A DNA stretch of 64,000 nt, from contig DDXR01000076.1 in NCBI GenBank assembly GCA_002347565.1, positions 42,006 through 106,005 on the forward strand, in the 5' to 3' direction. Of this stretch, positions 58,851 through 62,724 are shown piece after piece (position 1 is the stretch's first letter; every line of letters begins with the position of its first letter). The DNA is from a bacterium UBP2_UBA2255 (GTDB lineage Bacteria; Edwardsbacteria; AC1; EtOH8). Both the position numbers and the translations under genes were made by a program. The notes under the pieces were generated by a model. That model worked only from the letters and a program-made list of their open reading frames with translations. It ran no database searches and had not been told where the DNA came from.

Positions 58851-60371
58851 TCAGCCCAGCTCGGTGACTCCCACGTCGTAGTCCTCGCCGTCGACTCGCA
58901 TCACGAAATGCCGCTCGGGGTGCCCCTCCGGCGCCCGCACCCCCGCCTTGAGCGCTTCCTGGCGGGCCTTCTTCTTCAGCGGGTCCTTCTGGGCCTCGAA
59001 GTACTCCTTGGCCACCGCCGGGTACAGGGCGTAGGAGATGATGTCCTCGTCCCTGTCGGAAATGCCGGACATTTCCTTCTTGCACTTCTCCCATTCCGGC
59101 GCGATGTGGTTGGCCGGGCGGTCGCTGATCGGCTGCTCGTCGCCGATGGCCTTTTTCATCACCGCCGGGTCGATCGGCGCCGGGGTCCGGCCGTACAGGC
59201 CGCGGCACAGGTCCTTGACCTCCTGGATGATGATCTTGTAGCGCTCGCCGGCCAGCACGTTGAAGGTGGCCTGGGTGCCGACGATCTGCGAGGTGGGGGT
59301 CACCAGCGGCACGTAGCCCAGCTCGGCCCGCACCTTGGGGATCTCCTGCAGCACCGCCTCGAACTTGTCCAGGGCGTTCTGCTTCTCCAGCTGGCTGACC
59401 ATGTTGGTCAGCATCCCGCCCGGCACCTGGTAGACCAGCGCCCGGACGTCCACCCGCTCCGCCACGTTGGTGATCAGGTGGTGGTAGGAGCTGTCCTTGA
59501 TCTCCTGGAAGTACTCGGCGATAGCCAGGAAATGGGACTTGTCGACGTTCAGCTTGTAGCCGGCCCCGTCCAGCATCTCCACCACTGCCTCGGTGGGCGG
59601 CTGGCTGGTGCCCGACCCGAAGGGGCTGATCGCGCAGTCCAGGATGTCCGCCCCGGCCGCGGCCGCCGCGATGTAGGAGGTGGGCGCCATTCCCGTGGTG
59701 CAGTGCGAATGCAGGCACACCGGCAGGCCGACCTGCGCTTTGAGTTTGGCCACCAGCTCGGCCGCCGCCGCCGGCGTGATCAGCCCGGCCATGTCCTTGA
59801 TGGTGATGATGTCGCAGCCCAGGTCCTTGAGCTCCAGCGCGAACTTGACGAAGCCGTCGATGCTGTGCACCGGGGACAGCGTGTAGCTGAAGCAGCCCTG
59901 CACCGTGGCCCCTTGCTTCTTGGCGGTGCGGATGGCCTTCTCCATGTTGCGGATGTCGTTGAGGGCGTCGAACACCCGGAAGACGTCGATCCCCAGCTCC
60001 GCGGCCTTGCCGATGAACCGCTCCAGGATGTCGTCGGCGTAATGCTTGTAGCCGACCAGGTTCTGGCCCCGCAGCAGCATCTGCAGCCTGGTTTTCCTGG
60101 CGTGCTGCTTGAACACGCGCACCCGGTCCCAGGGGTTCTCGTCCAGGAAGCGCAGCATGGTGTCGAAGGTGGCGCCGCCCCACATCTCGAACGACCAGTA
60201 GCCCACTCGGTCCATCTGCTCGATCATCGGGACCATGTCCTCGGTGCGCATCCGGGTGGCGATCAGCGACTGGTGGGCGTCGCGGAAGGCGGTCTCGGTG
60301 ATGTTCACCAGGTGCTTCCCGGGCGCCGCCGCTGCGGGCGCCCCCGTTGACTTGTCTGTCTTCTTGAACAT
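58851..60371 (-). CDS. carboxyltransferase 5S-type subunit (oxaloacetate decarboxylase alpha / pyruvate carboxylase B-like TIM barrel, no biotinyl domain)
   Basis: ITETAFRDAHQSL, FEMWGGATFD and CLHSHCTTGMA motifs of the pyruvate carboxyltransferase family. Ends without a biotin-attachment domain. Confidence 0.9.
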   Translation of the reverse strand: MFKKTDKSTGAPAAAAPGKHLVNITETAFRDAHQSLIATRMRTEDMVPMIEQMDRVGYWSFEMWGGATFDTMLRFLDENPWDRVRVFKQHARKTRLQMLLRGQNLVGYKHYADDILERFIGKAAELGIDVFRVFDALNDIRNMEKAIRTAKKQGATVQGCFSYTLSPVHSIDGFVKFALELKDLGCDIITIKDMAGLITPAAAAELVAKLKAQVGLPVCLHSHCTTGMAPTSYIAAAAAGADILDCAISPFGSGTSQPPTEAVVEMLDGAGYKLNVDKSHFLAIAEYFQEIKDSSYHHLITNVAERVDVRALVYQVPGGMLTNMVSQLEKQNALDKFEAVLQEIPKVRAELGYVPLVTPTSQIVGTQATFNVLAGERYKIIIQEVKDLCRGLYGRTPAPIDPAVMKKAIGDEQPISDRPANHIAPEWEKCKKEMSGISDRDEDIISYALYPAVAKEYFEAQKDPLKKKARQEALKAGVRAPEGHPERHFVMRVDGEDYDVGVTELG

Positions 60372-60435
60372 GGCTACCTCGGCGCTGATGCTGCGTTTGA
60401 TCGCGGGACGCCGTCCCGCCGGGCGGGGCCGGCGA

Positions 60436-60834
60436 TCACGACAGGACGACCAGGGTCTCCCCGGCGCTGACGTTCTGCCGCTCCTTGACCCGGATCTCGG
60501 CGACCTTCCCGGCCAGCGGCGACGACAGCGTGGTCTCCATCTTCATGGCCTCCAGCTTCAGCAGGACGTCCCCCTCCTTGACCTCCTGCCCCTGCTGGCA
60601 CAGCACCTTGATGATGGTGCCGGTCATCGGCGCGGGGATCGCCTTCTGGCCCGCGCCCACCGGCGGGGCCTGGGCCGCGCCGGCCGGAGCGGCCGCGGCC
60701 GGCGGCAGGGTCACCGAGATGGTCTTGGGCCCGGTGGGCGCGGGCGGAGGCGGGACCGCTGTCTTGCGACCGACCTCCTCGACCTCTACCTCGTAGGCCT
60801 TGTTGTTGACCTTGACTATATACTTGCGGGACAT
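60436..60834 (-). CDS. biotin carboxyl carrier protein (1.3S-like biotinyl subunit)
   Basis: C-terminal biotinyl domain with EAMKME. Ala/Pro-rich linker. Confidence 0.9.
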   Translation of the reverse strand: MSRKYIVKVNNKAYEVEVEEVGRKTAVPPPPAPTGPKTISVTLPPAAAAPAGAAQAPPVGAGQKAIPAPMTGTIIKVLCQQGQEVKEGDVLLKLEAMKMETTLSSPLAGKVAEIRVKERQNVSAGETLVVLS

Positions 60835-60864
60835 GGTCCGCTCCCTTTGAGTTCCTATTTCCTC

Positions 60865-60892
60865 GTTGGGGCGACCGGCCGGTCGCCCTTAC
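60865..60892. repeat. 28-nt palindromic 5'-UTR element (copy 3)
   Basis: Upstream of the biotin-carrier gene start. Identical to copy 2. Confidence 0.8.
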
Positions 60893-60905
60893 CCGTTGCC
60901 GATCG

Positions 60906-61088
60906 CTATCTGACCCTCGCCATGTTGTCCTGCCGGCCCGCCAGCGCCCACAGGTTCATCTCGGAATGCTGCACGGCCTTGATCCCGACGATGTGGAATG
61001 CCAGCTTGTCGTCCCTGAGGTAGCGCCCCAGCGCCGCCGCGATGGCGATCTGGACCTCGGCCGACACCTTCTCTTTTTTCTGCGCCAT
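60906..61088 (-). CDS. small subunit of biotin-dependent carboxylase/decarboxylase complex (OadG/epsilon-like), tentative
   Basis: 60 aa. The AEVQIAIAAALGRYL pattern resembles the gamma/epsilon subunit helix. Sits between the carboxyltransferase and BCCP genes. Confidence 0.4.
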   Translation of the reverse strand: MAQKKEKVSAEVQIAIAAALGRYLRDDKLAFHIVGIKAVQHSEMNLWALAGRQDNMARVR

Positions 61089-61167
61089 GCTCTATCCTGT
61101 TTCCCGTTTTCCGTTTAACCGTTTCCCGATCAGTCGACAGGAAACCGGAAACGGCAAACGTTGAAAG

Positions 61168-62724
61168 TTACAACGGTATGTTCCCGTGCTTCTTGGCCGG
61201 TGCCTGGTCGCGCTTGGTCTTGAGCACCGCCAGGCCCGAGGCGATCCTGCCCCTCGTCTCCTCGGGCGGGATCACCGCGTCGACGTACCCGCGCTTGGCC
61301 GCCTCGTAGGGGTTGGAGAACATGGTCTCGTACTCCTCGATCAGCTCGTCGCGGCGCTTGGCCTTGTCCTCGGCCGCGTCGATCTGCTTGCGGAAGATCA
61401 CGTTGACCGCGCCCGAGGCGCCCATCACGGCGATCTCGGCCTGGGGCCAGGCCAGCATCAGGTCCGATCCCAGGTCCTTGTTGCACATCGCGATGTGCGC
61501 GCCGCCGTACGACTTGCGCAGGGTGACGGTGATCTTGGGCACGGTGGCCTCGGAGTAGGCGAACAGGATCTTGGCGCCGTGGCGGATGATGCCGCCGTGC
61601 TCCTGCTGGCGGCCCGGCAGGTAGCCCGGGCAGTCGACGAAGGTCACCAGCGGGATGTTGAAGGCGTCGCAGAACCGGATGAAGCGGGCGGCCTTGTCCG
61701 ACGAGTTGATGTCCAGGCAGCCGGCCAGCACCGTGGGCTGGTTGGCGACGACCCCGATCGTGTGCCCGTTGACCCGGCCCAGGCCCACCACGATGTTGGG
61801 GGCGTACAGCTCGTGCACCTCCAAAAAGTCGCCGTCGTCCACGACCCTGAGGATGATGTCCTTGACGTCGTAGGGCATCTTGGGGTTGGTGGGCACGATG
61901 GTGCGCAGCTCCATGTCGATCCGGCCGGGCTCGTCCGCGCTCTTGGCCGCCGGCGGATCCTCCAGGTTGTTGGCCGGCAGGAACGAGATCAGCTTGCGCA
62001 CGCCGGCGAAGCAGTGCTCCTCGGAGGGATAGATGAAGTGACCGTTGCCCGACACCGCGTTGTGGGTGCGGGCGCCGCCCAAATCTTCGAGGCCGATCTC
62101 CTCGCCCATCACCGCCTTGATCACCTGCGGGCCGGTGATGTACATGTTGGAGACCTTGTCCACCATGAACACGAAGTCGGTGATGGCCGGGCTGTAGACC
62201 GCGCCGCCGGCGCAGGGGCCCAGGATCACCGAGATCTGCGGGATCACGCCGCTGGCGCGCGAGTTGCGGAAGAAGATCATGCCGTAGCCGTGCAGCGAGT
62301 CGACGCCCTCCTGGATCCGCGCCCCGCCGGAGTCGTTGATGCCCACCACCGGCACGCCCATCTTGAGGGCCATGTCCTGCATCTTGACGATCTTCTGGGC
62401 GTGGGCCTCGCCCAAGGACCCGCCGGTGACCGTGAAGTCCTGCGAGAACACGAACACCGGCCGCCCATCCACCGTGCCGTAGCCCGTGACCACGCCGTCG
62501 GCCGGGATCTCGATCTTGTCCATGCCGAAGGTGTCGCAGCGGTGCTTGACGAAGGCGTCGAACTCCACGAAGCTCTGCGGGTCCAGCAGCAGGTCGATGC
62601 GCTCCCGGGCCGAGAGCTTGCCCTTGTCGTGCTGCTTGGCCGCCCGCTTGCCGTCGGCGTCGACGATGACGGACTTCTTGTCCTCGAGCGCCTTGATCAG
62701 CGTTTCGATGGTGCGTTCAGACAT
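61168..62724 (-). CDS. methylmalonyl-CoA carboxyltransferase 12S / propionyl-CoA carboxylase beta-type subunit
   Basis: Carboxyltransferase family motifs: TGGSLG, GINDSGGARIQEG, ILGPCAGGAVYSPAITDF, GVVANQP, FVDCPGYLPG. Confidence 0.95.
   Translation of the reverse strand: MSERTIETLIKALEDKKSVIVDADGKRAAKQHDKGKLSARERIDLLLDPQSFVEFDAFVKHRCDTFGMDKIEIPADGVVTGYGTVDGRPVFVFSQDFTVTGGSLGEAHAQKIVKMQDMALKMGVPVVGINDSGGARIQEGVDSLHGYGMIFFRNSRASGVIPQISVILGPCAGGAVYSPAITDFVFMVDKVSNMYITGPQVIKAVMGEEIGLEDLGGARTHNAVSGNGHFIYPSEEHCFAGVRKLISFLPANNLEDPPAAKSADEPGRIDMELRTIVPTNPKMPYDVKDIILRVVDDGDFLEVHELYAPNIVVGLGRVNGHTIGVVANQPTVLAGCLDINSSDKAARFIRFCDAFNIPLVTFVDCPGYLPGRQQEHGGIIRHGAKILFAYSEATVPKITVTLRKSYGGAHIAMCNKDLGSDLMLAWPQAEIAVMGASGAVNVIFRKQIDAAEDKAKRRDELIEEYETMFSNPYEAAKRGYVDAVIPPEETRGRIASGLAVLKTKRDQAPAKKHGNIPL

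Follow-up and report, generated by a model that had tools for sequence, protein, structure and literature searches.

Which reaction is carried out by a set of biotin-dependent carboxyltransferase genes that has neither a membrane-bound decarboxylase subunit nor a biotin carboxylase beside it? The question is raised by a four-gene operon on the minus strand, at positions 58851-62724, of the 64-kb stretch of DNA analysed here (the window), which comes from an uncultivated Candidatus Edwardsbacteria bacterium. An earlier note on this DNA had described the genes as mirroring methylmalonyl-CoA:pyruvate transcarboxylase, in the order 12S-like carboxyltransferase, 60-amino-acid (60-aa) small protein, biotin carrier with an EAMKME motif, and 5S-like carboxyltransferase without biotin. 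Open reading frames (ORFs) and domain matches confirm that order, and the comparison itself is borne out by gene content and order together with the absence, at the scale of the neighbourhood, of a decarboxylase beta subunit and a biotin carboxylase. The likely product of the operon is a soluble, ATP-independent, biotin-dependent methylmalonyl-CoA:pyruvate carboxyltransferase (EC 2.1.3.1), an enzyme for a familiar reaction of propionate metabolism, and as such it is an ordinary further case of a known system. We place the assignment at this level because the operon combines two carboxyltransferases with a free carrier, because its linkage is conserved, and because it matches two transcarboxylase gene sets that are already known. 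All that is new, and only mildly so, is what the small subunit proves to be.

Operon, subunits and relatives of the putative transcarboxylase

The operon and the two sites that precede it are as follows.

62847..62872, minus strand: terminator-like hairpin (11 pairs and a T run), closing the preceding PEGA lipoprotein gene
62809..62837, minus strand: sigma-70-like promoter-like site (TTGAAA-17-TATAAT, 11/12 to consensus), about 85 nucleotides 5' of the start of the 12S-like gene
61168..62724, minus strand: acyl-CoA carboxyltransferase (12S / MmdA / MmcH-like), 518 aa; PF01039 Carboxyl_trans over its full length, E 1.6e-202
60906..61088, minus strand: small subunit, 60 aa, in the position of MmcI ("epsilon") and of the Propionibacterium PFREUD_18850-type ORF
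60436..60834, minus strand: biotin carboxyl carrier (1.3S / MmdC / MmcJ-like), 132 aa; PF00364 Biotin_lipoyl
58851..60371, minus strand: pyruvate/oxaloacetate carboxyltransferase (5S / MmcL-like), 506 aa; HMGL-like and PYC_OADA domains

The intergenic gaps across the set measure 64-79 bp. The operon appears to be insulated from the upstream lipoprotein gene, as supported by the terminator-like hairpin and by the operon's own promoter-like site that follows it. No terminator-like site was found at the 3' end of the four genes, where a co-oriented bactofilin gene and then opposite-strand genes follow; the bactofilin gene also lies 3' of the cassette in another Edwardsbacteria locus (L004). The 79 bp that separate the 12S-like gene from the small gene (61089-61167, minus strand) hold an inverted repeat, CCGTTTCCGGTTTCC ... 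GGGAAACGG ... GGAAAACGGGAAAC, that could form an intercistronic RNA hairpin.

The subunits expected of a transcarboxylase are all present. The first is a 12S-type protein, though sequence alone has no power to separate 12S from PccB or MmdA: its best NCBIfam family is mmdA (TIGR01117, 833 bits, under the 998.8 cut-off), and it scores 655 bits with P. shermanii 12S (1on3) and 645-709 bits with PccB structures in the PDB. This subunit would be the site for methylmalonyl-CoA and propionyl-CoA. The carrier is a free 1.3S-type protein composed of an N-terminal hairpin motif (KYIVKVNNKAYEVEVEEV), a Pro/Ala linker and the biotinyl domain, with EAMKME at residues 95-100; its best PDB match is P. shermanii 1.3S (1dcz/1o78), and it reaches 92 bits, under the cut-off, with the MmdC model NF047903. 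Its N-terminal motif provides a docking segment that parallels MKLKVTVNGVAYDVDVDV of 1.3S, a protein whose N-terminal residues are needed for assembly of the complex. The 5S-like protein is a 5S-type carboxyltransferase without a fused biotinyl domain (no PF00364 in a Pfam scan). It contains RDAHQS, KDMAG, and LHSHCT, which correspond to RDAHQS, KDMAA, and LHCHST in P. shermanii 5S, and it ends in the hairpin motif HFVMRVDGEDYDVGVTELG. Two carboxyltransferases of different specificity and one free carrier are sufficient for transcarboxylation and insufficient for net decarboxylation, which needs a beta subunit, or for carboxylation, which needs a biotin carboxylase.

In the proposed cycle, the 12S-like subunit would move a carboxyl group from (S)-methylmalonyl-CoA to the biotin of the 132-aa carrier, freeing propionyl-CoA; the carrier would then swing to the 5S-like subunit, where pyruvate would be carboxylated to oxaloacetate. 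The whole cycle could also run in reverse.

The same cassette, with carboxyltransferase, small (60-74 aa), carrier, and 5S-like genes in the same order, is found in Edwardsbacteria (L004 and L005), Wallbacteria (L006, L007, and L012), and WOR-3 (L010 and L011). In two of the Wallbacteria loci (L007 and L012) it is directly followed by a mutase and a B12/epimerase fusion. In L012, MeaB comes after another 5 kb, and in L006 it is encoded 4.7 kb downstream of the cassette. Because the order is kept across loci and because of the linkage to mutase, epimerase, and MeaB in Wallbacteria, we regard the cassette as a unit tied to methylmalonyl-CoA metabolism. Parts of it recur in Firmicutes: one locus (L096) has a member of the small-protein family directly after the carboxyltransferase gene, beside mutase, B12 subunit, and epimerase, and another (L097) has carboxyltransferase, small, and carrier genes.

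The first of the two known gene sets is the transcarboxylase operon of Propionibacterium freudenreichii (EC 2.1.3.1; PFREUD_18840-18870), which consists of four coding sequences: 5S, a 524-aa 12S, a small coding sequence corresponding to the "C-terminal part" of an older 12S sequence, and 1.3S (PMC2909200). It shares with the window the number of genes, a 12S-type carboxyltransferase of about 520 aa, a small ORF, a free carrier of about 120-130 aa, and a 5S without a carrier domain. In Propionibacterium-type systems, as in the window, the C terminus of 5S and the N terminus of the carrier share a hairpin motif (HFVMRVDGEDYDVGVTELG and KYIVKVNNKAYEVEVEEV in the window, NYSVTVGGRSHDVTVEPA and MKLKVTVNGVAYDVDVDV in A. 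thoenii), a homologous small ORF lies between 12S and 1.3S, and it is their 1.3S that best matches the window's carrier in the PDB. For the comparison, 80 loci were collected by similarity to a P. shermanii 5S fragment; 57 of them fall in the actinobacterial 5S group. The Actinobacteria differ in having the 5S gene first (the order in A. thoenii is 5S, 12S, an 81-aa ORF, and 1.3S) where the window has its 5S-like gene last, in a 5S that belongs to another clade, and in a small ORF of 80 aa with an extra N-terminal heptad-like segment.

The second gene set is the mmc cluster of Firmicute syntrophic propionate oxidizers, which encodes a decarboxylase alpha subunit (mmcH), an epsilon subunit (mmcI), a gamma subunit that is the carrier (mmcJ), a malate dehydrogenase (mmcK), and a transcarboxylase 5S (mmcL) (PMC8892533). 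In Pelotomaculum thermopropionicum and other Firmicutes, this cluster shares the order carboxyltransferase, small "epsilon", carrier, and 5S, as well as linkage to mutase, epimerase, and MeaB (PMC8892533). It differs in that mmcK stands between carrier and 5S, where the window has no such gene, and in that the pathway genes form one cluster, those of the window being scattered over 50 kb. The likeness between the mmcI "epsilon" and the 60-aa protein is one of position only.

Decarboxylase and carboxylase alternatives

The genes might instead encode peripheral parts of one or two Na+-translocating decarboxylases, acting on methylmalonyl-CoA and/or oxaloacetate, with the beta and anchored gamma/delta subunits encoded elsewhere in the genome. 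Like these systems (MmdABCDE, OadABG), the operon has an MmdA-like carboxyltransferase, an MmdC-like carrier, and a small protein homologous to the C-terminal module of the OadG family, and in Sedimentibacter a carboxyltransferase-small-carrier trio occurs without a 5S gene. It differs from them in having no beta subunit, in a small protein that has no membrane anchor and cannot be extended, and in the presence of a second, pyruvate-type carboxyltransferase. An OadA-type alpha subunit, moreover, normally has its own biotinyl domain, which the 5S-like protein lacks. Known decarboxylase operons keep the beta gene with those of the other subunits, as in V. parvula mmdADECB and K. pneumoniae oadGAB, and this also counts against the decarboxylase explanation.

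A Pfam scan of every coding-like ORF of the window found no OAD_beta (PF03977) and no biotin carboxylase (Biotin_carb_N, CPSase_L_D2), and the operon has no anchored gamma or delta subunit (PF04277 plus a transmembrane helix). The search could be carried beyond the window by means of a contig (L001) that is 99.9% identical to it and runs 3.8 kb past its right end, upstream of the operon. This additional sequence encodes a helix-turn-helix (HTH) protein, a TPR protein, a BrnT/CopG-type toxin-antitoxin pair, and an unknown partial ORF; the membrane beta subunit that the earlier note had allowed for just outside the window is not there, and neither is a biotin carboxylase. Nor was OAD_beta or a biotin carboxylase found within 10 kb of the cassette in the seven related loci, which represent three phyla. 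The claim that the genes are not a Na+-pumping decarboxylase is thereby upheld for a self-contained enzyme, there being no OAD_beta in the window or the fetched neighbourhoods, and we think it improbable that they belong to one whose remaining subunits are encoded at a distance.

Several observations nevertheless weigh against a transcarboxylase. Subunit similarity cannot separate it from its decarboxylase and carboxylase relatives: in the PDB the 5S-like protein scores 470 bits with PycB (5ks8), 464 bits with OadA (2nx9), and 451 bits with 5S (1rqb), and the best family of the 12S-like protein is mmdA. With PDB and NCBIfam scores nearly equal for all three kinds of relative, we dropped subunit similarity as a means of assigning function. 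The NCBI label on close homologs of the 5S-like protein is "pyruvate carboxylase subunit B". The 5S-like protein is not an ortholog of P. shermanii 5S and falls in a separate clade beside PycB-type proteins, among which Methanohalophilus (L093) has a carrier-fused PycB followed by a biotin carboxylase and BirA. Finally, the absence of a beta subunit and of a biotin carboxylase was established at neighbourhood scale, so that a trans-acting version of either keeps a small probability.

The phylogeny of the 5S-like protein, a neighbour-joining tree on 405 core columns, places it inside a clade of carrier-less proteins at 64-91% identity. Its closest homologs are from Candidatus Edwardsbacteria (85-88%), and in Wallbacteria, WOR-3, and Caldisericia there are remoter relatives (61-67%) that lack a carrier domain. 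The sister group consists of carrier-fused proteins from methanogens and one planctomycete (58-62%), archaeal PycB among them. Identity is lower with actinobacterial 5S (46-49%), V. cholerae OadA (51%), and M. flagellatus PycB (50%). The planctomycete locus (L094) contains a 12S-like gene, a 5S::carrier fusion, and a mutase. Because the sister group holds both a true PycB (L093) and this transcarboxylase-like cluster (L094), the tree cannot decide function, and we ruled it out as a test. The 5S-like lineage appears to have served in both kinds of complex, and the functional assignment rests on context, not descent; orthology to 5S is not required for transcarboxylase activity.

The planctomycete and Caldisericia genes have arrangements of their own. 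The planctomycete cluster (L094:1976-7816) is made up of a 12S-like carboxyltransferase, an 83-aa ORF (3661-3912), a 672-aa 5S::biotin-carrier fusion, and the mutase, and is thus transcarboxylase-like with a fused carrier; its 83-aa ORF looks similar by eye to the small protein and was rejected as a homolog, having no score with the hidden Markov model (HMM) described below. In Caldisericia (L008/L009:10001-12669), the carrier-less 5S-like gene has neither a 12S-like nor a carrier gene beside it and adjoins isocitrate/isopropylmalate dehydrogenase-family, TRAP transporter, and ICL/PEP-mutase-family genes, which suggests a different role.

These relationships bear on a further explanation, in which an ATP-dependent biotin carboxylase (PycA/AccC) whose gene lies elsewhere charges the carrier. 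The 5S-like protein would then be PycB and the 12S-like protein the beta subunit of propionyl-CoA carboxylase, with the carrier shared by the two. Two-subunit PycA/PycB enzymes (methanogens; Methylobacillus flagellatus, 5ks8) resemble the window in a carboxyltransferase core that is 58-62% identical between the 5S-like protein and archaeal PycB-type proteins, and 5ks8 gives the top PDB score. The 5S-like protein also passes the domain-type NCBIfam model "pyruvate carboxylase subunit B" (NF006761; 719 bits against a cut-off of 402), its homologs are publicly annotated as PycB, and the sister clade holds the Methanohalophilus PycB with PycA and BirA adjacent. That protein, the true PycB that we checked, has a fused carrier and an adjacent PycA; the 5S-like protein has neither, with no C-terminal biotinyl domain and no PycA partner in the window or in any related locus, within 10 kb in the latter. 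The linkage of the cassette runs to mutase, epimerase, and MeaB, and even a carrier charged in trans would be compatible with transcarboxylation by the same parts. The earlier note had asked whether the 5S-like protein groups with PycB proteins coupled to a nearby biotin carboxylase; the first half holds, in that it lies near archaeal PycB, and the second does not, as no biotin carboxylase is nearby. We consider the carboxylase explanation unlikely.

The 60-aa protein

The small ORF has the signature of real genes in the window (GC content of 0.92 at third and 0.36 at second codon positions; GC3 and GC2) and is kept at the same position in seven loci. It cannot be longer than 60 aa, because an in-frame TAG lies 2 codons 5' of its ATG; this stop and the lack of a hydrophobic stretch rule out an N-terminal extension or a transmembrane helix. 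The maximum 19-residue Kyte-Doolittle mean is 0.66, as against 2.56 in one OadG-family protein. The predicted monomer has one confident helix, at residues 10-26, with a predicted local distance difference test (pLDDT) of about 87 at residues 11-20 and a predicted template modelling score (pTM) of 0.31. No match was found in Pfam (a set that does not include PF26062) or NCBIfam even at E = 10. The family is small and annotated only as "hypothetical", and the name "epsilon subunit" did not surface among its homologs. Three relatives (P0170, P0171, and P0256) bear a precomputed Pfam label, PF26062, and a curated family for the module may therefore already exist.

A search of 1.84 billion representative proteins with a profile built from 18 members of the family produced 26 matches. 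The distant ones are OadG-family proteins with PF04277 and an N-terminal membrane helix, and the matched part is their C-terminal region. Three OadG-family proteins (P0177, P0182, and P0190) carry two or three tandem copies of the module behind one membrane anchor. In oxaloacetate decarboxylase (OAD), gamma binds the alpha subunit through its tail, and methylmalonyl-CoA decarboxylase has a homolog of gamma in its delta subunit (PMC7274780). Because the small protein matches the C-terminal part of OadG-family proteins and has no hydrophobic stretch, and because the gamma tail binds alpha, we identify it from these comparisons as an anchorless version of the OadG/MmdD-type C-terminal binding module.

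The relation to the Propionibacterium operon could be examined with an HMM of the window's small-protein family, which we ran on 7221 six-frame ORFs of the loci fetched with the P. shermanii 5S fragment. Among all of these it picked the ORF between 12S and 1.3S alone, in 18 loci, and alignment of the window family with the actinobacterial small ORFs by hhalign gave a probability of 95.5% (E 1.4e-8, 49 columns). These profile comparisons show homology between the 60-aa protein and the product of the small ORF in the Propionibacterium transcarboxylase operon.

The probable role of the 60-aa protein is in assembly of the complex. Its amphipathic helix would be the soluble counterpart of the OadG/MmdD tail that holds the carboxyltransferase subunits in Na+-pump decarboxylases, and the protein would join the parts with no need of a membrane anchor, perhaps via the hairpin motifs at the C terminus of the 5S-like protein and the N terminus of the carrier. 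More tentatively, and with somewhat more doubt than conviction, we suggest that it may be a widely conserved and unrecognized fourth transcarboxylase subunit, a derivative of the OadG/MmdD tail that has no anchor and by which the carrier and the dimers of the 5S-like protein are clamped to the 12S core. In that case, what the old P. shermanii sequence shows as the "C-terminal part of 12S" would be this separate subunit, and the lineage of the window would have built its transcarboxylase independently, from an MmdA-small-MmdC module and a PycB-type carboxyltransferase that lost its carrier domain.

Pathway partners, direction of flux and implications

The other enzymes of a methylmalonyl-CoA route are encoded in the window outside the operon.

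11953..12357, minus strand: methylmalonyl-CoA epimerase (TIGR03081, 157 bits, cut-off 115)
17719..18666, minus strand: MeaB, mutase-associated GTPase (PF03308, E 7e-96; TIGR00750, 345 bits)
28942..29352, minus strand: B12-binding subunit of methylmalonyl-CoA mutase (PF02310; TIGR00640, 164 bits)
34595..36367, minus strand: large subunit of methylmalonyl-CoA mutase (PF01642, E 1.7e-235; TIGR00641, 827 bits)
47104..48558: malic-enzyme-family protein (both Pfam domain cut-offs passed; NCBIfam cut-offs not reached)

The split mutase, MeaB, epimerase, and malic enzyme that had been reported for this window are thus recovered by Pfam and NCBIfam, the malic enzyme at family level. With the epimerase, the split mutase, and MeaB, the enzyme encoded by the operon would link succinyl-CoA and pyruvate to propionyl-CoA and oxaloacetate.

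The same note had gone on to propose propionate fermentation, which over-reads the gene content: the reaction is reversible, and while such genes form propionate in Propionibacterium, Pelotomaculum-type syntrophs use this arrangement to oxidize it (PMC8892533). The transcarboxylase may run in the consuming direction, in which case oxaloacetate would give up the carboxyl group to propionyl-CoA, from propionate or from the breakdown of odd-chain compounds or branched amino acids, and the product would be passed on to succinyl-CoA. Consumption of this kind falls under the transcarboxylase assignment, but it is the opposite of Wood-Werkman propionate fermentation and in conflict with the physiology proposed earlier; we hold it to be possible, though less likely than not. 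Besides the precedent in syntrophs, it is favoured by the Firmicute locus L096, where the module is linked to a 2-oxoacid:ferredoxin oxidoreductase and a glutamate dehydrogenase, suggesting amino-acid breakdown, by several peptidases encoded in the window and its relatives, and by a formate-dehydrogenase/NADH-dehydrogenase-like module near the cassette in Edwardsbacteria L004. This evidence is circumstantial, and the window shows no gene for propionate CoA-transferase, fumarate reductase, or succinate dehydrogenase, for either direction. Whether propionate is made or consumed cannot be read from the window, and a literature search found no paper on the metabolism of Edwardsbacteria.

Around these pathway genes, an MGS-like (methylglyoxal synthase-type) gene (12389-12850) lies directly upstream of the epimerase gene. 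A low-GC island of about 38%, as against about 66%, occupies 30128-34503 on the minus strand and encodes an N6/N4 DNA methylase, a protein with a NucS_C domain, and an unknown 506-aa ORF; it sits between the gene for the large mutase subunit on one side and an unknown ORF (29366-30001) and the B12 subunit on the other. The two mutase parts are adjacent in three relatives (L007, L012, and L096), and what separates them here resembles a restriction-modification island that has entered the mutase operon.

Elsewhere in the window, the region upstream of the carboxyltransferase operon (62911-64000 and L001:1-3811) has a lower GC content (52%), encodes lipoproteins including the PEGA-domain protein, and may be a variable region. 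Several large secreted proteins with FlgD_ig or Por_Secre_tail C-terminal domains, of the type IX secretion kind, are encoded at 19907-26699 and 38521-41625, and such domains fit an organism of the Fibrobacteres-Chlorobi-Bacteroidetes (FCB) group; two of the listed ORFs, 23317-25614 and 24987-26699, overlap, and one start is probably mis-set. A stress-gene neighbourhood at 53191-56636 includes a sigma-70 family factor, an HtrA-type protease, an ORF at 55588-55941 whose counterpart on contig L001 is called MerR, and Hsp20, and is partly kept beside the operon in Edwardsbacteria L004.

The assignment proposed here would correct public labels in this clade, where close homologs are called "pyruvate carboxylase subunit B" and "hypothetical protein". 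It would give Candidatus Edwardsbacteria, a little-studied candidate phylum, a methylmalonyl-CoA route by which propionate may be made or consumed, and the Wallbacteria and WOR-3 that share the cassette would have this route as well. Understanding of the pathway itself is unchanged. The gene arrangement had already been described in mmc clusters. As a modest addition, the small-protein module unites the actinobacterial "12S C-terminal" ORF, the soluble Firmicute small proteins encoded directly 3' of the carboxyltransferase gene, and the tail of OadG-family anchors, suggesting how soluble transcarboxylases and membrane decarboxylases may use a common assembly device.

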